From the IMG/VR virus record IMGVR_UViG_3300026097_001455, positions 16,862 to 80,861 of that record: a DNA stretch of 64,000 nt. One strand, 5' to 3'. Both the position numbers and the translations under genes were made by a program. The notes beneath the pieces are model-generated. The model saw only the letters and a program-made list of their open reading frames with translations, was not told the origin of the DNA and ran no database searches. Below are positions 5,300-29,788 of the stretch, in pieces; positions within the stretch are counted from its first letter, which is position 1; every line of letters begins with the position of its first letter. Source of the stretch: a virus.

Positions 5300-7231
5300 T
5301 TATCCCTTGTAGTTACGGTTTCTTACCATTCTACCTTTTTCGGCATCAAAGTAATAAGCTGTATCTGGAGTCTTTTCTTCCTTAGGTTTAACAGAAACAC
5401 TCTCGTTAATAATTTCTTGCTTAGACTTTCTCTTAACTTCATTGATTGTTTCAATCTCATAGTTAGGATTCTTAACAAGATTTCCAGTGTTAAGATCAAG
5501 GATATAAGCCTTACTCTCATTAAGGTAGTCATCTTCGAATACCTTAAACTCTGCTCCAGAAAGAGAATCTGGCTTAGGAACTACTATCACTTCCTTACCA
5601 TCTACGCTGTCTCCAGCATCAATCTCTTGGTTTCTCTTCATGAATTCTTTTTCATTCTCTATTTCTCCTTGCTCTCTTGAAACTTCTTTGTGAGAAACTT
5701 CTGGCTCATCGCATCCGCACGATTCAGCAAGTCTAATAGTTGAGTTCTTCTCAAAGTCAGAAAGCGATTTCCATCTATTGCTTTCTTCTTCTTTAGATTT
5801 CTTGTGAGTAATTATATATCTCTTGTTAACTCCTTTTTCTTCGTTTTCTGTAAGACCAACAAATTTTCTTTTTGATGGGTCAAAGCTTTCAGAAAGACCT
5901 TTTGACTTCTTACCTTTCATTCCAGCTCTACCTCTTGGTGGGTTAGCTGCAAGATCGTTTTCTTCTTCAGAATTAACCTCAACTCCGTGAAGACCAAGTG
6001 CGTGGTTCTTATTCATTCCTTTAGGAACGTACCCACTTCCTGGCTCAAGCTCTACTTCTGTCCATCCATCTGAACTAGATTCTCTCTTGAGCGTTCTTTT
6101 CTTACCTTTCTTAGAATATGGAGTCTCTTCAAATCTCTCCTTGAGCTTTTTCTTGTTGATTTTGCTCTCTGGAGAATCTCCCATTTCTTCATCGAAGTCT
6201 CCACCCTTAGCGAATGCTCCTGGAGTTTGGTATGCTCCTGCTCCTGCTCCACCAGCACTTGCAGTAACTTCATCAATGTATTTCTCTTCCTTATCAGATT
6301 TCCATCCCATATCAATAGTTTCCCACTCAGAAGGCTTAAGTTCTTTAGGAGAAGATGCGCCAAATTTGTTCATCATCTTTTCGAAGTAATCTCTGTAATC
6401 TTTCCCCATCTTTTGCTCACACTCTTCTAGGTCATCAAATAGTAGATTACCTGGAGTGTTAGCATCTTTTACTTCTGGGTGATTCTGATCAACATCTTTG
6501 TCATCATGAGAGGATTCCATAATCCTATCAAGTGTTTCATCGTAATCAGATGTAATAATATCTGTTAGGCTTAATTTTTTCATATTGCTTTCAACCATTG
6601 AGTTTATACTTTTTTCGACTCTATCTTCAATTCCTAGCTTCGTCTTAATGAAGTAGTTCGCCTCTCTTTCGGCATACTCATCAAACTTTTTCTTAAGTTC
6701 TTTTTTGAATTTGCTCATGTTATCAAGCTTGAAGAATAGTTTATCATCTATCATGAATGGCCCTTTCTTGTCGTGGTGACCTCTAAAGAATGATACTTCA
6801 GTAGTCTTGTAAGTCATGTCCATTGTTTCTGATTCAGCGTCAATATCAACGTGAATCTCAACAACCATCTTCTTACCACCAAAGCTCAAGTTCTTTTCAA
6901 AGAATCCATTAGTTGACTTAGAGCCTTTAACTCTGTTAACAGTCACATTAACTTCACCTTTCTTGGAACCCATACCGTAAGTAGAACCATCACCGTAAAC
7001 ACCTCTATTCCAACCTTGCTCACCTTCACCTCTGTTCCAGTTAGTCTCGTCATCTTTCCTAATAGCTGTGTCTAAACGTGATTTAAAGCCTTCAGAATCG
7101 AAAGCTTTTTCAGAAGACTTTTCCAACTGCTCTTCAATTGCATCATAAACCTTAGCCTTAAGCTCTTGGTCTGTTGCAAAATGTGAACGTTGCTTGTCGT
7201 TTTTTTCTGAGTTATTTTCTATATTGGCCAT
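5300..7231 (-). CDS. Large charged protein, probably internal head protein
   Basis: Start moved to ATG 7231 behind a TATTTATA motif (7250-7257); EVTASAGGAGAGAYQTPGAF motif; several [IL]xE sites. Confidence 0.6.
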   Translation of the reverse strand: MANIENNSEKNDKQRSHFATDQELKAKVYDAIEEQLEKSSEKAFDSEGFKSRLDTAIRKDDETNWNRGEGEQGWNRGVYGDGSTYGMGSKKGEVNVTVNRVKGSKSTNGFFEKNLSFGGKKMVVEIHVDIDAESETMDMTYKTTEVSFFRGHHDKKGPFMIDDKLFFKLDNMSKFKKELKKKFDEYAEREANYFIKTKLGIEDRVEKSINSMVESNMKKLSLTDIITSDYDETLDRIMESSHDDKDVDQNHPEVKDANTPGNLLFDDLEECEQKMGKDYRDYFEKMMNKFGASSPKELKPSEWETIDMGWKSDKEEKYIDEVTASAGGAGAGAYQTPGAFAKGGDFDEEMGDSPESKINKKKLKERFEETPYSKKGKKRTLKRESSSDGWTEVELEPGSGYVPKGMNKNHALGLHGVEVNSEEENDLAANPPRGRAGMKGKKSKGLSESFDPSKRKFVGLTENEEKGVNKRYIITHKKSKEEESNRWKSLSDFEKNSTIRLAESCGCDEPEVSHKEVSREQGEIENEKEFMKRNQEIDAGDSVDGKEVIVVPKPDSLSGAEFKVFEDDYLNESKAYILDLNTGNLVKNPNYEIETINEVKRKSKQEIINESVSVKPKEEKTPDTAYYFDAEKGRMVRNRNYKG

Positions 7232-16529: not shown

Positions 16530-17192
16530 TTATGCTTCAGGGATTGGTTCTTCACCCCCTGCTGCTGGCTCCTGTGGCTCTGGTTCTTTATCAACTGGGT
16601 CACCTCCAGGTTTTCCTGGAATTATAGTGAGCTTTTCTCTCCAATCTTTTTGCCAAGCATCATAATGGCTATAGAGTTTCTCTACTAATCTTTTATTACC
16701 AGAAGTAACCAAAAGGTCTTCGGTGTTTATAACAAGACCGTCTTTTAGAGAATAAGCCCAGCTTAGAGTTCCTTCTCTTCCCATTTTAATTTGTCCAGAT
16801 GCTCCAGCCTCAATTCCATCTTGTCCTACAGACATCTTAAGAGAGTATCCATTAGATTGCGTATCAAATACAACAGAAGCGCCATCAACCTCTTGAAGCA
16901 TTTGTTCGAAAGAGTTTTCAAACTCAGCTATTTCAGAAGACGTGATCTGTGGAATTCCGCTACCGTAGCTTTCTCTTATTGTTGTAGAAATAAGTTTATT
17001 TCCGTTCTTGTCTTCTTCTGGCTTATCTCCTCCGTAAAAAACAGCATATTCAAGCTCTTCTTCAGACAACCCCTTTGGCTTAAAGGTTCTGCTTCTAGCT
17101 TTCTTTTTTTTCTGAGCGCTATCTTTAAGAGTTTCAAAAGCAAGAGACTGAATCTCCTGTCTGATCATTTCTAATAAATCGTTTCTAGTCAT
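16530..17192 (-). CDS. Hypothetical protein, probably head-associated
   Basis: N-terminal LLEMIRQEI helix. Confidence 0.7.
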   Translation of the reverse strand: MTRNDLLEMIRQEIQSLAFETLKDSAQKKKKARSRTFKPKGLSEEELEYAVFYGGDKPEEDKNGNKLISTTIRESYGSGIPQITSSEIAEFENSFEQMLQEVDGASVVFDTQSNGYSLKMSVGQDGIEAGASGQIKMGREGTLSWAYSLKDGLVINTEDLLVTSGNKRLVEKLYSHYDAWQKDWREKLTIIPGKPGGDPVDKEPEPQEPAAGGEEPIPEA

Positions 17193-24626: not shown

Positions 24627-25343
24627 ATGAACCAGATCAGTGAGGCACATATTAGAAAAATAATAAGAGATGTCATATCAGAATCTCTAATTACAGAAAT
24701 TTCTGCTGAAGAAAAATCTAAGGTAATGGGAAAGAGTAACGAAAGAGTTCCTTTCTCAACCGAACTGATGAAACAAGCTATTCAACAAGGTCGTGAAGTA
24801 GGGATTAACTTCCAATCTAACAACACCAAGTATAAAATGCCTACTGTTAAGGCTAGGATAATTCACCCAGTAGCTATGGGGTATGACAGCAAAGGAAATC
24901 TTGTTATAAGAGGTCTTCATGTAACTGGTCAATCAGAAAAGGCTGCAAGAGAAACTGGAATTAGGAGTGCTGAGGTTGAAGCTGAAAAGGATGGAATGAA
25001 CGCTTGGAGGCTTTTTAGGTCAGATAATTTAAGGTCAATGTGGTTTACCGATAGGTTCTTTAGTGATAGCATACCAGGATACAATCCAAATGATAGCGCT
25101 ATGTCTTCAGTAATAGCTTCATACGACCCAGGGGCAGCTAAGAAATACCAAGACAATCTTGTTACAGGGGAGCCAGAACAACAGCAGCCAGAGCAGCCCC
25201 AACAAACACAAGCACAAGCACAACAACAACAACAGTCAGAGCCTGAAATGCAAAAAAGGCCCCCAGTAACTAAGGACCTTGATCAAATGGATTATGAAGA
25301 TCAGCCAGTTCAAGAAAAGAAGGTTAGAAGCCTATTTAAGTAG
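24627..25343 (+). CDS. WYL-like domain protein
   Basis: ARIIHPVAMG...IRGLH...WRLFRSDNL; Q-rich tail. Confidence 0.65.
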   Translation: MNQISEAHIRKIIRDVISESLITEISAEEKSKVMGKSNERVPFSTELMKQAIQQGREVGINFQSNNTKYKMPTVKARIIHPVAMGYDSKGNLVIRGLHVTGQSEKAARETGIRSAEVEAEKDGMNAWRLFRSDNLRSMWFTDRFFSDSIPGYNPNDSAMSSVIASYDPGAAKKYQDNLVTGEPEQQQPEQPQQTQAQAQQQQQSEPEMQKRPPVTKDLDQMDYEDQPVQEKKVRSLFK

Positions 25344-25361
25344 TTGCCACATTAAAACGTG

Positions 25362-25413
25362 GCATAACAGCCGATAAAATTGCATTGAAACGCATTTTAT
25401 CTTGGTGTTAGGC
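25362..25413 (-). mobile_element. attC-like recombination site (52 bp)
   Basis: Minus strand GCCTAAC...GTTATGC (RYYYAAC / GTT-core) enclosing an imperfect palindrome with bulges (gataaaa/ttttatc, tgc/gca); the cassette ORF stop TAA lies inside GCCTAAC. Confidence 0.7.
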
Positions 25414-25626
25414 GTAATTTATAGCCTTCTTCAACTGTCTTAATACCCTTTTGCAATGTTTTTTATCTTCACCTTCGTTATTCCACACAAGAAACTCATA
25501 AGTGCTTATCATCCCCTCAATATCTTCATCTCTTAGGATAACTTTTGTGTGAGAAAAACTACGCCTAACAACAGGTATAGTTAATTCCTGTTCTGTGCTT
25601 GTTTCTAAGTTCTGTTCTTTTTTCAT
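25408..25626 (-). CDS. Small gene-cassette ORF
   Basis: 72 aa; starts inside one attC-like site and stops inside the other. Confidence 0.65.
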   Translation of the reverse strand: MKKEQNLETSTEQELTIPVVRRSFSHTKVILRDEDIEGMISTYEFLVWNNEGEDKKHCKRVLRQLKKAINYA

Positions 25627-25691
25627 CGTTATATCTATTTTGAAAGTTTTGTAATTCTATTCAGGCACTAACCATACCCAAAACGTTATAC
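25563..25691 (-). mobile_element. attC-like recombination site (129 bp)
   Basis: Minus strand GTATAAC-gttttg-ggtatggttagtgcctg...caggaattaactatacc-tgtt-GTTAGGC; the upstream gene's stop lies inside GTATAAC. Confidence 0.65.
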
Positions 25692-26345
25692 ATCATTTTT
25701 TGGAGCATAATACTTCCCACGAATTTTAACACCCTCTTTTATGAAGCCATCTTTGGATTTATAGTTTTGTTTTGATAGGAGAACCATGCCTTTGGTTTTT
25801 ATCTCTATTTCTTCTAGCTTTTTATTTGACTCCTTAAGTATTTTATCCGCCTTTTCCTTGAGGCTATGTAAACTAATAGATGTGTGAGATTTTCTTTTCC
25901 ATTCTTCAACTAATATTTCATCACCTAGTATAAAAAGATGGAATAGATTAATTCCTCTACTTATTCTAAACACCGTCTTATCATTGTAGATGCCCTCATG
26001 TCTTATCCCCTTCTCATCTGGATTTTCCCAGTCTACCATGAATCTTGATTCGATAGCTTCTTTAATATCTTCTTTTCTTTCCTCTTTTTTCTGATCAGAC
26101 TCAAGCCTTCTGAGTTTGGACTTAATTCTATTCTGTGCCTCCTGCTTAAGTTTTTCTTGCTTAAGCTTAGCCTCTCTTTCGCCTTGCCTCTCATTCTTTT
26201 GCTTAGACTCCTTGATGGCTTTCATGGCCTCTCTAGCCAGTTCATCAATAGACTTTTCTGGCTGCTCTGAATCCCTGATCTCTCTAGCTAGATCATCAAT
26301 GGTCTTTTGAGACTCTGAATCTTTTTTATTTCCTTCCTCTGCCAT
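25686..26345 (-). CDS. Charged coiled-coil hypothetical protein
   Basis: 219 aa; KTIDDLARE/KSIDELARE repeat. Confidence 0.7.
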   Translation of the reverse strand: MAEEGNKKDSESQKTIDDLAREIRDSEQPEKSIDELAREAMKAIKESKQKNERQGEREAKLKQEKLKQEAQNRIKSKLRRLESDQKKEERKEDIKEAIESRFMVDWENPDEKGIRHEGIYNDKTVFRISRGINLFHLFILGDEILVEEWKRKSHTSISLHSLKEKADKILKESNKKLEEIEIKTKGMVLLSKQNYKSKDGFIKEGVKIRGKYYAPKNDV

Positions 26346-29300
26346 TATGTTATTGTAATCTTAGAAATACCCGCTTTAGGGTTGTTTTCAACGACTTCTG
26401 GCTCTAATCCATCTGTTACCTTGGTAACCTCTATGATGTTGTCCGAGAAGTCCTTTATTTCGTTCCTGTGCGTAATTATAAGCACGTTCTTATACTTATT
26501 TCTTAAATAGTTCAAAATATTGACTACACCCATGGTAAGTTCATCATCAAGTGTCCCGAAACCTTCGTCTATAATTCTAACAGTAGGCTTTGTAAGTCGG
26601 CTCATATACCTCAGCGCCTCTGTAATTACGATTGAAGCTATAAACTTTTGTGAGCCAGATGCAGATGTCAATGGAAGCGTGTCTCCTTTGTCATCGCTAA
26701 AATAGAATGTCTCAACAATATCTCCGTTCTGCTGTATGTCAAGATCAATTTTAAAGTCAACTACCTCTTGAAGTATTGAGTTAATTTTTGAATTAATAAT
26801 AGGAAGCTTTCTTCTTATAATAGAAGCTGGTATTCCATCTCTATGTACAGCTTGTAAATAAATAGAGTATTTCTTATACAGCCTTTCAGAATTGTTTATC
26901 TGACTAAGTTTGTCATCATAGTTTTCTCTATTATTCTCAAGAACTTTAAGCTCACCATAGCACTTGTTTATGTTCTTATCCAGGTTAAACACTGTAAGCT
27001 TGTAAGACTTGTACACCCTAGTCTTTTCATCTACCTGTTCTTGAATCTCTTTGTTTCTCTTTATCTTCCCGATGTTCTCATCAAACTTGCTTATCTTAGC
27101 CTCAAGGTCAGATATTAACTTCTCATTAGCACTAACCTCTTTGTTCTTGGTAGAGAGTTTTTTGCTATTGATGTCAACCTCATTGTTATGATCAATAATG
27201 TCTTGAGAGTTTTCTATGAGGTTGATCTTATCTTTAAGAATCTTAAGTGACTCACGCTTCACTGATATAGATTCTTCAGCTATATCAAGCTGGTTTTTCT
27301 CGTTGTCTACAGTAGTGTTGTGCGCTATAATAGCATCATTCTCCTTAATTCTTCTTTCCTTGTAATCAACAAGTCCTTGCTTCATTTCAATCTCTTCTAA
27401 GCATTCCACCTCCTTTTCTGGGTCTGGCTTATGTTCTACATGTCCGCATGTTGGGCAGCACTTGCCTTGATATGTTGGTAGCTTGGCGTTTAAGTTGGTT
27501 ATTTCTCCTTTAAGCTCTTTTATCTGATCTTCGAAATTAGATACTTCAAGCTCTGAATTCTTAGGGTTGGTGTTAAGCCAGTCTTTCTTTGTTCTAATTT
27601 TATTCTCAAGACCATTAACTGTTTTTTGCTGTTCTGATAATTGAGATTTAAGCGAACTTATACTAACGCCCTTATCAAAAGGAAGTTCCTTCTTAAAGTT
27701 TTTGTCAAGCCATTTTTCAAGATTTCCAATAACTACCTTGTCACTTTCAATAGATTCTTTGATGGACTCTATTTTCTTAACTGCGGCATCTCTGTCTGTA
27801 ATTCCAGGGTCTTCAACTTTGTCAATTTTCTTATTAAGCTCAATGATCTCATCGTTTGTATCATTCTGCTTTATGAGCATCATGTCTTTCTCTTCCTCAA
27901 AAGACTTTAGCTCCTCTTTCTTTTCTTTGATTTCAGAGTCGATTTCTTTGATCTTATTCTCAATCTCTATAGCATTACCAAGGTCTTTCTGCTTACGCTT
28001 AACATCATTAAAAAAAGTCTTTCCATACTCATGCCTATCCTTGTATGGCTCAAGACCAAGAAATCTACTTATAAGAGCATTTTTTGGCTGCTGCTGTTGA
28101 TTAATGTAATCACCTTTTCCACCCTGAGCCTGGAGCGATGTCTTAGTGAAGTCATCAAACGTACCGATTGCATCAAGCACAATTGACTTAACTTCTTTTT
28201 TCTCCATTGTCTTTTTATCAGAAATCTCTGGAGACCACTTCTCTCCGACAACGTTTCCGTCATCATCATACTCCTTAGCAAGTTTGTCATACTTTATTCC
28301 AAAGCTATTTTTACCTTTCTTAGTAGTTATCTTCCTGTATATTCTATACTTTTCACCATTAATAGTTAGAAAAATTTTCACATAACCCGTATCCGAATCT
28401 GTATAAATATTTACAAGGTATTTTGAAGTGCTTCGATTTCCACCAAGCATTTCTTCATATAACCCCCATACAATAGCTTTGATCACATTTGACTTACCAT
28501 TAAAGTTCTTTCCAAATATTCCAGTAAGTCCCCCAACCTTATCAAAATCTATTTTTAAAGGCTTTTTGTCAAATGAAAGTATGTTACTTATTTCTATTGA
28601 GTTAAGGTCCCAGTCACTCATATGTCTTGATGAGGATTCATTGATTTCAAGAGTTTCGTCTACATGTCTTGCAAACTCCATAAGCTCCTTCATGAGATCA
28701 TCATCAACCTCAAAATCTCCATCTTCTATCCACTCCTTGAAAAGGTCTTCAAAAACTTGTTCCTGCTCTTCATCTTCTTGGAGTTCTGCAACATCCCTTA
28801 TTATTTCGACAAACTCAACACGAACACTTTCGCATCCATATTTATCACGCACAAGTCTCTTAATCTGATTTTCCTTCTCAATAGAGTAGTTCTCTTCATA
28901 ATCTTCCCAAGTGATATATACCTTTGTTTTTCTCTTGTTATTACTAAACTTAACGTATTCAATCCTTTCGTCAACATCCTCGCCTTTTGCGATGTCTATT
29001 TTAGCAAACCCATAATCATTTAGAACAAACTTTCTCTCGTGAGTACAGTTATCTAAATCCCACAGAAGGTATCCTTTATCAATAGATTCTCCAAAGTTCT
29101 GCTGAATTAAAGAGCCTGCATAAGCTACTGTATCATCATCTCTGAATGTCTGGTATTCATGAATATCTCCAAGCATAACAACATCAAAATTGTTAAAGGT
29201 GCTTAGTCTCATTAGGTTATCACCCTGCATTTGGTATCCATTATCTCCTCTAGCTCCGTAAACAGTGCCATGATACATTGCTACATACTTTTTTCCTGGC

Positions 29301-29788
29301 TCCTTTTTTTCTAAAGTTAGAATTTCATTATCCTTGCAAGAATAAACTCCGTAAACGAGATTGTCACTGATTTCATAGAATCCTGAATCTGGATAATAAT
29401 ATACAGCTTTCTTACTAAAGTCTATACTATCCTTGTTTTCGTTTGTAACAACCACAGCCTTTCTGTTACCTGAATCTTCCAGTAAGTTTGCTAGATTGAA
29501 TATTGGGGATATTGCGTCACCCTGCTCAAGCTGTTGAAGATTGAGATCATGATTGCCTAAAATAACATCTGTTGGGGCTATGTCAGAAAGTTTAATGAAT
29601 AGCTCTGCTAATAAGCTAAAAGAATTTGGTGACATATTAATCTTGTGGTGAACAAGGTCTCCTGCTAAATAGATTCTATCTGGCTTTTGTTTTTTAAGGT
29701 CTTCATAAAGTCTTTCAAATACTTGTCTGTATTCATCATGCCTTGTTCCAAACCTAATCTGTATATCTGCTAAGTGGGCTATTTTCAT
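26345..29788 (-). CDS. Fused SbcD/Mre11 nuclease and SbcC/Rad50 ATPase (gp47+gp46-like)
   Basis: HLADIQ, AGDLVH, LGNHD, MYHG, LGDIH phosphoesterase motifs; Walker A GKNFNGKS; Zn hook CPTCG; ASGSQK signature; IIDEGFGTLD; ITH. Confidence 0.92.
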   Translation of the reverse strand: MKIAHLADIQIRFGTRHDEYRQVFERLYEDLKKQKPDRIYLAGDLVHHKINMSPNSFSLLAELFIKLSDIAPTDVILGNHDLNLQQLEQGDAISPIFNLANLLEDSGNRKAVVVTNENKDSIDFSKKAVYYYPDSGFYEISDNLVYGVYSCKDNEILTLEKKEPGKKYVAMYHGTVYGARGDNGYQMQGDNLMRLSTFNNFDVVMLGDIHEYQTFRDDDTVAYAGSLIQQNFGESIDKGYLLWDLDNCTHERKFVLNDYGFAKIDIAKGEDVDERIEYVKFSNNKRKTKVYITWEDYEENYSIEKENQIKRLVRDKYGCESVRVEFVEIIRDVAELQEDEEQEQVFEDLFKEWIEDGDFEVDDDLMKELMEFARHVDETLEINESSSRHMSDWDLNSIEISNILSFDKKPLKIDFDKVGGLTGIFGKNFNGKSNVIKAIVWGLYEEMLGGNRSTSKYLVNIYTDSDTGYVKIFLTINGEKYRIYRKITTKKGKNSFGIKYDKLAKEYDDDGNVVGEKWSPEISDKKTMEKKEVKSIVLDAIGTFDDFTKTSLQAQGGKGDYINQQQQPKNALISRFLGLEPYKDRHEYGKTFFNDVKRKQKDLGNAIEIENKIKEIDSEIKEKKEELKSFEEEKDMMLIKQNDTNDEIIELNKKIDKVEDPGITDRDAAVKKIESIKESIESDKVVIGNLEKWLDKNFKKELPFDKGVSISSLKSQLSEQQKTVNGLENKIRTKKDWLNTNPKNSELEVSNFEDQIKELKGEITNLNAKLPTYQGKCCPTCGHVEHKPDPEKEVECLEEIEMKQGLVDYKERRIKENDAIIAHNTTVDNEKNQLDIAEESISVKRESLKILKDKINLIENSQDIIDHNNEVDINSKKLSTKNKEVSANEKLISDLEAKISKFDENIGKIKRNKEIQEQVDEKTRVYKSYKLTVFNLDKNINKCYGELKVLENNRENYDDKLSQINNSERLYKKYSIYLQAVHRDGIPASIIRRKLPIINSKINSILQEVVDFKIDLDIQQNGDIVETFYFSDDKGDTLPLTSASGSQKFIASIVITEALRYMSRLTKPTVRIIDEGFGTLDDELTMGVVNILNYLRNKYKNVLIITHRNEIKDFSDNIIEVTKVTDGLEPEVVENNPKAGISKITIT

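Follow-up and report, generated by a model that had tools for sequence, protein, structure and literature searches.

We analysed a 64,000-nucleotide window of viral DNA, positions 16,862 to 80,861 of the IMG/VR virus record IMGVR_UViG_3300026097_001455, and focused on 342 bases of it (25344-25685, in window coordinates) that resemble a pair of integron gene cassettes. The source record is a contig of 80,861 bp with a GC content of 36% and a CheckV completeness of 24%, which implies a full genome of about 340 kb. The segment separates the stop codon of a plus-strand gene for a 238-residue protein from that of a minus-strand gene for a 219-residue protein, and reads as a small ectopic two-unit insertion between convergent genes (Table 1).

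On the plus strand the insert is bounded by G/TT on both sides (25343/25344 and 25685/25686). Read along the minus strand, which carries the cargo gene and is called the gene strand here, the order starts at the TAAC that includes the stop codon of the 219-residue gene, continues with unit A (a long module and a 72-residue cargo) and ends with unit B (a 46-nt short module and a hairpin devoid of cargo). The long module is laid out as TAAC, G, five variable bases, a 17-bp stem, a 71-nt AT-rich loop, TGTT and GTTA; its stem (14 Watson-Crick pairs, two G.T pairs and one G.A mismatch) is part of the minimum-energy fold for the gene strand but not for its complement, while the loop and 3' arm hold the start codon of the cargo gene and its first 20 codons. 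The cargo of unit A spans GTTAGGCGTAGTT to AATTACGCCTAAC, two arms that are complementary at 12 of 13 positions, with one G.T wobble on the gene strand. The stem of the short module is of 8-9 bp (25401-25394 with 25380-25373). The architecture of this module recurs in the related loci L003, L015, L017, L022, L074 and L078, and cargo-less hairpins of the form GTTG...CAAC with the same loop as the terminal hairpin are found in L009 and L027.

Table 1 Features of the insert and its neighbours, in window coordinates (R1, covariance model of the module family, see text)
Feature	Position	Strand	Remarks
Whole insert	25344-25685		between TAG of the 238-residue gene and TAA of the 219-residue gene
Long attC-like module, 123 nt	25566-25688	-	R1 109.8 bits, E 1e-20
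Module stem, 5' arm GGTATGGTTAGTGCCTG	25662-25678	-	pairs with 25590-25574
Module stem, 3' arm CAGGAATTAACTATACC	25574-25590	-	also codes residues ~13-18 of the 72-residue protein
Internal TAACG, possible secondary core	25628-25632	-	directly before the ATG in the module loop
72-residue open reading frame	25626-25408	-	module-encoded leader MKKEQNLETSTEQELTIPVV, then cargo RRSFSH...AINYA; no known family
Cargo-start repeat arm GTTAGGCGTAGTT, R'-like box	25557-25569	-	GTT read as the Val-20 codon
Cargo-end repeat arm AATTACGCCTAAC, R''-like box	25407-25419	-	holds the TAA stop
Short module, 46 nt	25365-25410	-	TAAC, ACCAA, stem, loop with CGTTTCAATG, GGCT, GTTA
Terminal hairpin or 'empty cassette': GTTATGCCAC, loop GTTTTAAT, GTGGCAAC	25343-25368	-	AAC overlaps the stop of the 238-residue gene on the other strand
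238-residue gene	stop TAG 25341-25343	+	converges on three minus-strand genes
219-residue open reading frame	26345-25686	-	stop TAA 25688-25686
1147-residue open reading frame, Mre11/SbcD-like phosphoesterase fused to SbcC/Rad50-like ATPase	26345-29788	-	single open reading frame

An earlier account of this region, made from the letters alone and called the sequence-only reading below, had described two minus-strand genes that end inside AAC cores, each core opening an imperfect palindrome closed by a GTT core. The opening cores GTATAAC (25691-25685) and GCCTAAC (25413-25407) are indeed present and hold the TAA stops of the 219- and 72-residue genes respectively, as are the closing cores GTTAGGC (25569-25563) and GTTATGC (25368-25362) and a perfect 11-bp inverted repeat (25406-25416 and 25560-25570), which a repeat search extends to 18 nt at 89%. 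Both palindromes exist as well, here called site 1 (the short module) and site 2 (the long one); the second has to be redrawn as a 17-bp stem, 25678-25662 with 25590-25574, closing the 71-nt loop, and the 72-residue frame begins inside it (ATG 25626-25624).

Within the window alone, these features do not stand out. Perfect 11-bp inverted repeats with gaps of 20-200 nt occur at chance level (five seeds in the window vs 6.7 ± 3.6 in 100 dinucleotide shuffles). The fold of site 1 is a bulged hairpin (z score of -1.5 to -2.5), site 2 folded alone gives z ~0, and the whole 356 nt are unremarkable on either strand (-1.3 on the gene strand, -1.9 on the other). The sequence-only reading had set its palindromes against ordinary terminators: on this point the in-window energies, taken alone, speak against it. 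A terminator and promoter scan called neither site a terminator, both being without a T run. An Rfam scan of 24800-26200 returned three matches, all to unrelated long non-coding or small RNA models at E>6, and no relevant family. What lifts the observation above chance is comparison across a family of related sites, with its covarying end repeat and compensated stem, and not any in-window statistic.

This family became visible in a blastn search against phages, in which 113 nt (25566-25678) were found to be 82.6% identical to the Cellulophaga phages phi19:3 and phi13:2. Identity runs from AACG to GTTGTTA and takes in both the 5' untranslated region and the opening 20 codons of the cargo gene. 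Searching IMG/VR with an 18-nt motif identified 25 loci, all of which, save one chance match, carry a module of ~124 nt; the absence of similar sites elsewhere, which would have told against the sequence-only reading, is thus replaced by the same module in 24 viral loci. Among the IMG/VR loci the sequences flanking the modules are unrelated on both sides, and modules are 80-95% identical across otherwise unrelated phages. The consensus order is TAACG, N4-5, GGTATGKTTAGTGCCTG, an AT-rich stretch with ATGAAAAAAGAACAG, CAGGCATTAAMTATACC, TGTT and GTTA, in which the arms, of 17 nt each, are paired and covariation is seen at the K and M positions. Measured from TAAC to GTTA, 39 of 46 distinct modules are 122-129 nt long, six are 84-87 nt and one is 114 nt; the start is TAAC in 40 and CAAC in six, and the end is GTTA in all 46. 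Many members of the family share the TAACG that precedes the ATG, which may be a secondary crossover core.

Using an alignment of 40 long modules, we measured covariation within the stem. This analysis revealed that 93.7% of the stem cells pair, as compared with 30-42% when the partners are slid, and that 15 of the 17 stem pairs have changed on both sides; the covariation score was 0.491 vs 0.115 in shuffles, none of 500 of which scored as high. The stem is under selection, being maintained by compensatory changes across the modules. In addition, a G.U pair on the gene strand is conserved at one position in 38 of the 40 modules and at another in 26.

A covariance model built from this alignment (R1, which is distinct from the standard attC model) gave a single strong match over the 80.9-kb record, namely the long module, and aligned end to end, if weakly, with the short site 25365-25410 (16.4 bits, E 0.72). 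Six further matches in the record had E values of 0.3-1.8; the five inspected proved to be coding sequence without matched ends, and the sixth is L029 5297-5394. An 18-mer scan of bacterial genomes yielded 21 loci (~35 chance matches being expected), with a real module in just six, all of them on contigs of metagenome-assembled genomes (MAGs), five of 2-7 kb and one of 47 kb (L048, Lishizhenia sp.). No recombinase homologue was found within these loci, and the scan says little about chromosomal arrays. One contig of 7.3 kb labelled as a Candidatus Pacearchaeota MAG (L040, JBAYNB010000048.1) carries nine modules on one strand, and is probably a mis-binned phage or Bacteroidota contig rather than archaeal DNA.

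The matched ends of the cargo are likewise a property of the family. We compared 20 non-redundant loci with a complete downstream region (one further locus was cut short and one was dropped for a broken 3' arm). In 19 of these, the 13 nt that start at the GTT core are complementary at 10-12 positions to the 13 nt that close with TAAC, and in the twentieth at 9. Cargos begin with GTTA-N6-MGT, which pairs with AWT-N6'-TAAC at their end, and the TAAC sits at the stop codon or at most 15 nt past it. Only one mismatch of the repeat is constant, a G.T pair when read on the gene strand, and the six innermost bases vary by locus. When arms were swapped between loci, the mean match fell to 8.7 of 13, and 12 was reached in two of 414 comparisons. 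A generic scan for GTTA...TAAC pairs found 127, as compared with 9-34 in 20 shuffles, and identical repeat arms surround unrelated cargos in L017 and L013. Cassettes follow one another head to tail on one strand (seven in L013, six each in L016 and L017), separated by sites that differ in sequence, not in geometry. The Cellulophaga baltica phages phi19:3 (L001, KC821608 12679-18791) and phi13:2 (L002, KC821633 9871-15983) each have three to four such repeat-bounded cassettes. Among the loci of the cargo family (L059-L087) the three repeat classes GGCGTA, GTAGCC and TAAGCC track the cargo subfamily, and cassettes are 162-163 nt long.

Hairpins with a loop containing GTTTYAAT (CGTTTTAAT in the strongest) were also found at cassette junctions, 21 in 55 sequences vs 3-12 in shuffles, and about ten of them have stems of 8-13 bp set in a TAAC...GTTA or GTTG...CAAC frame. 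In the window this loop lies at 25351-25358 and 25384-25391; elsewhere it is present in L003, L009, L015, L017, L022, L027, L074 and L078, where both short modules and hairpins without cargo carry it. A third copy of the loop motif CGTTTYAATG in the record, at genome position ~375, is outside any hairpin.

The 72-residue protein matched nothing in Pfam, PHROGs or the protein Atlas; a search for relatives found 50 at E<=0.01, in none of which a Pfam domain was recognised, and an identical protein is encoded on a contig of 135,635 nt. From residue R21 onwards the same cargo sits behind at least six unrelated leaders in other contigs. Of 99 cassettes, a sample in which two subfamilies with starts in the module are over-represented, 61 have the start of the reading frame within the module and 36 within the cargo, and two have no reading frame. 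Where the ATG lies in the module, the GTT core is in frame as a codon in 51 of 61 cassettes; a fixed frame at this core, which we had considered, is therefore not universal. All 51 R1 matches in the cargo-selected loci (spread over 20 of 31 loci) fall on the gene strand, and reading frames point towards a recombinase gene in L032, L033 and G011, so that the better-folding strand reads towards that gene. In classical integrons the attC bottom strand likewise reads towards intI. Here the genes themselves lie on the folding strand and read towards the enzyme, the reverse of the classical cassette.

We then sought evidence that such units move. In the relative L028, the same SbcCD-like gene is accompanied by a 48%-identical homologue of the 219-residue protein and by a convergent gene for 234 residues, with only 7 nt between the two stop codons; the whole of 25344-25685 is missing from this syntenic locus. 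The sequence-only reading had proposed looking for relatives that lack exactly 25368-25568; what L028 lacks is the larger segment. Phages phi19:3 and phi13:2 have in common a module-plus-cargo block bounded by AACG and TAACGG, which occupies different array positions in the two, and in the L011/L017 pair as well as in a unit duplicated within L012, homology ends at TAAC.

A further set of loci was selected by cargo (24 DNA loci showing the repeat, of 32 examined). In the closest pairs among them the breakpoints fall exactly at GTTA and/or TAAC. L072 and L073 have the upstream module in common and diverge right after TAACG; agreement between L061 and L072 begins at GTTA and extends over the downstream module; L081/L085 and L060/L067 have only the repeat-bounded cargo in common; and L075/L076 retain the cargo plus ~25 nt of the upstream arm. 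Across the GTT core, identity drops from 82% to 47%. As the co-inherited module differs between pairs, we dropped the notion that a cassette always consists of a module plus a cargo, and, with breakpoints at both cores, either site may 'belong' to the cargo. The cross-matching ends that the sequence-only reading had seen stand; integration at G^TT, which it had read from them, does not predict breaks at both cores.

The sequencing run that holds the window (X1) provides a further view of the locus; no RNA run was listed as containing it. Word depth in this run is ~11.5 over the flanks and 42-82 over the cassette region, a four- to sevenfold rise; contigs end or branch at 25344 and at 25407-25410, and a 90%-identical cargo in another context starts exactly at 25407. 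One contig joins 25406 to 25628 with a side of 26 nt and four shared letters (GTTA on the plus strand), which we take as a hint only, and a single contig likewise joins 25414 to 25562; the sides of the two joints measure 24-26 nt.

A candidate enzyme is found in relatives. Genes with the tyrosine recombinase domain PF00589 are present in five of the 15 array-bearing viral records searched, including three of the four with an estimated completeness of 90% or more (jumbo phages of 266, 327 and 362 kb, the fourth such record having no module at its locus). In all five, the array lies upstream of the recombinase gene on the same strand: R1 modules are found 300-600 nt upstream in four, and in the fifth (G011) a combined nhmmer and repeat scan detected repeat-bounded cassettes over ~9 kb leading towards the gene. 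The recombinases are 267-293 residues long and 37-56% identical to one another. Their best models are XerA (177 bits, for a cut-off of 220) and the integron-integrase model TIGR02249 (157.6 vs 265, in two stretches, for a protein of 267 residues against 315 model positions), followed by XerC and XerD; the nearest solved structure is archaeal XerA, and then VchIntIA. They are small Xer/IntI-like enzymes and not IntI itself. The sequence-only reading had looked to a tyrosine recombinase encoded elsewhere, and while such an enzyme does stand at the array ends in five related records, it is not an integron integrase. Immediately after two cassettes in L013, positions 5936-6157 code for a 74-residue remnant of the Xer-like recombinase (57% identical), which looks like a decayed platform. 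A different and larger tyrosine recombinase, gp036 of phi19:3 (418 residues; 27.6 bits, to XerD only), was considered as the enzyme of the system and rejected; its gene is found on the strand of the cassettes, two genes downstream of the last one.

Taken together, the covarying cargo ends, the one-strand arrays, the breaks at cores, the relative free of the insert and the recombinase in five related records support the integron-like cassette reading. We consider it reasonably probable (about 0.6) that 25344-25685 represents a two-unit outpost of a system of integron-like gene cassettes found in Bacteroidota phages, in which recombination would proceed through single-stranded DNA. In this scheme the gene strand, when single-stranded, would fold so that the module stem and the AAC and GTT cores form a hairpin recombination site; a small Xer/IntI-like tyrosine recombinase would cut and exchange strands at the cores, and modules and cargos could be excised, inserted and reshuffled, possibly still today. 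The enzyme acting on the present copy may be encoded elsewhere in the genome, of which the record is estimated to cover 24%, or may come from a co-infecting phage or the host. Unlike in classical cassettes, the module stands at the 5' end of its gene, its loop providing the start codon and probably expression signals, with its 3' arm and core coding for the first 20 residues. Each cassette would be self-expressing because the site at the 5' end of the gene supplies both start codon and leader.

We also entertain, more tentatively and as a proposal that is rather more likely to fail than to hold, the idea of a viral counterpart of the integron run by an Xer-like recombinase without the IntI domain. 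Here the site would double as the expression unit of the gene, exchange at the in-frame GTT (valine) core would swap leaders and cargos in frame, and recombination might use either strand or a double crossover, as the breaks at both cores suggest.

The family resembles integrons in several respects. Like attC, the sites are imperfect palindromes bounded by AAC...GTT cores, keep their structure while their sequence varies, and are arrayed on one strand; as in integron cassettes, the bases after GTT pair with those before the next AAC, so that a circle would restore a matched box; and in relatives a recombinase gene stands at one end of the arrays. The attC repeats of Vibrio cholerae measure ~123-126 nt, and the module length of ~124 nt is similar. 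There are also differences. In attC, extrahelical L-box bases mark the recombining strand, whereas here such bases are not conserved and two conserved G.T pairs in their place give the strand asymmetry. A classical attC follows its promoter-less reading frame on the 3' side, and that frame points away from the integrase; here the site stands 5' of the reading frame, whose start it contains, and it is the folding strand that carries the gene. Further departures are an R box of 13 bp rather than 7, breakage at both cores around a cargo, an associated enzyme that is Xer-like and scores below the integron-integrase cut-off, and the fact that the host of the cassettes is a virus.

Clusters of two or more attC sites close together without a nearby integron integrase are known as CALIN. 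The nearest known cases are the phage CALIN of Qi et al. 2023 (PMC9892861), and there is no integrase near the present copy either. That study reports 17 attC clusters without integrase in phages, and an attC-like site of the flavobacterial Polaribacter phage P12002L that was recombined with attI1 by IntI1 on the bottom strand only, which is the one precedent for a folded single strand as substrate. In P12002L, R1 gave no match at E<=1, and a relaxed repeat scan gave mostly noise, with a few GTTG...CAAC pairs bearing the same AGTT/AATT signature; the two sites tested in PMC9892861 are at most possible members of the family.

Two other systems invite comparison. The Xer-dependent dif (pdif) modules of Acinetobacter plasmids are the subject of PMC6449649 and PMC13141974. 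The pdif sites are double-stranded XerC/XerD sites of 28 bp. As in the pdif modules, genes are bounded here by sites in alternating (inverted) orientation (a geometry that follows from how the repeats are built, each junction being an inverted copy of the other), are shuffled between replicons, and have an Xer-type recombinase implicated; unlike in pdif, a 17-bp stem with arms ~70 nt apart covaries, which implies intramolecular folding, and the recombinase is phage-encoded and, as far as seen, single. The promoter/stem-loop (PeSL) cassettes of T4-type phages, whose shuffling is attributed to homologous recombination (PMC2839356, PMC4122927), are similar in that the hyperplastic regions of large phages contain small accessory genes flanked by short, conserved regulatory motifs, which mark where insertions, deletions and replacements begin and end. 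What sets the module family apart from PeSL are its cores of 4 nt, the covariation of its end repeats and the dedicated recombinase that relatives encode.

Several explanations compete with the integron-like reading. The helices might act mainly in RNA, in processing, stabilisation or translational control near the start codon, with mosaicism as a by-product of ordinary phage recombination. This would fit the conserved non-Watson-Crick pairs, which are G.U on the transcribed strand (38 and 26 of 40 modules), the restriction of all 51 model matches to the gene strand, the start codon in the loop of 61 of 99 cassettes and the long stem that only the gene-strand fold contains. It leaves unexplained, however, the exact breaks at 4-nt cores in many independent pairs, the identical repeat arms on unrelated cargos, the loss of the whole segment in a relative and the constant position of the tyrosine recombinase at array ends; moreover, the module is not needed as a start in the 36 of 99 cassettes whose frame starts in the cargo, and no Rfam family matches. 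We regard a purely RNA-based account as improbable, although the two roles are not mutually exclusive and an RNA role of the helices may coexist with recombination. Somewhat less probable still is that the modules are mobile regulatory cassettes of the PeSL kind, shuffled by homologous recombination without a dedicated recombinase. Modules that are 80-95% identical across otherwise unrelated phages, that sit at gene starts and contain an ATG, and that mostly occur, as here, in records without a recombinase would all suit such shuffling; yet it predicts breaks scattered within modules, not sharp GTTA/TAAC edges with a fall in identity from 82% to 47%, does not require a covarying 13-bp end repeat or covariation of a 17-bp stem, and would have to act on modules that often differ too much for recombination even when they belong to a single array. 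PeSL-type shuffling explains the conservation of the modules, and not the cores, the matched ends or the recombinase.

That the cargo is a small transposon-like element, such as a miniature inverted-repeat transposable element or an IS200/IS605-type element with terminal inverted repeats and an unseen transposase, is suggested by the 13-bp inverted repeats that bound it, by the hairpins adjoining its ends and by the two of five close pairs in which the repeat-bounded cargo alone is the common unit. We consider this very unlikely, in that the repeat varies by compensatory change instead of being conserved, units run head to tail at constant spacing, a tyrosine recombinase is the one enzyme seen repeatedly, and no transposase gene was noticed in the loci, where no systematic search for one was made. 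Least credible of all is that the palindromes arose by chance or are ordinary terminators: the unremarkable in-window statistics and the position between convergent genes are what one would then expect, but the terminator scan with its missing T run and the comparative evidence (modules in 24 loci, covariation of end repeat and stem, strand-specific R1 matches) contradict it.

Several observations nevertheless weigh against the integron-like reading. Folding energies by themselves are no better than those of shuffles, and the arms of 17 + 17 nt have no conserved bulged (extrahelical) bases. The better-folding strand is also the mRNA strand, so that the G.U pairs are accounted for just as well by an RNA role. 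The empty site of L028, where the flanking protein is 48% identical, is too diverged for exact breakpoints and shows no GTT. In the five close pairs the upstream module was co-inherited once, the downstream module once, part of the upstream module once and neither module twice, and both cores around a cargo break, which the one-sided G/TT crossover of classical integrons does not predict. The contigs of run X1 give two single-contig joints only, and no excision product or circle was demonstrated. The two sites are 155 nt apart, the short one being weak under R1, and no PF00589 recombinase was found in the 80.9 kb of this 24%-complete record, in line with the earlier statement that the window holds no integrase; ten of the 15 array-bearing records, most of those ten being fragments, likewise have no PF00589 match.

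Integrons are the classic vehicle of bacterial gene capture, and both their origin from Xer-type recombinases and the birth of new cassettes are open questions. The module family presents the geometry of integron cassettes in viruses, with a simpler recombinase, inverted genes and sites that double as translation starts. If the more specific proposal of a viral counterpart with an in-frame core were true, it would bear on the descent of integrons from Xer systems and on the making of new cassettes, and the exchange of leaders and cargos at the GTT core would amount to modular shuffling at the protein level. Full-text searches of the literature, including that on Cellulophaga phages, found no description of the module family, of its Xer-like enzyme or of sites carrying a gene start; this integron-like cassette system is widespread in Bacteroidota phages and barely described. 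The trade in small accessory genes among large Bacteroidota phages may have its explanation in this system; such genes probably serve to take over the host or to counter its defences. Its occurrence in the cultured phages phi19:3 and phi13:2 makes it testable at the bench, in a ready experimental system. For annotation, the succession of TAAC, stem and GTTA together with matched ends offers a rule for marking out accessory genes and for predicting which start codons they really use.

As regards the genes beside the insert, the sequence-only reading had labelled the 238-residue neighbour a WYL gene, a name that has to be given up, since Pfam gave no WYL domain for the protein at E<=0.1. All that was matched, and weakly, were FixH (E 0.05) and phrog_12276 (E 0.0024), and the protein ends in a Q-rich low-complexity tail encoded at 25180-25250. 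The 1147-residue SbcCD-like fusion on the other side is kept in the relative L028.

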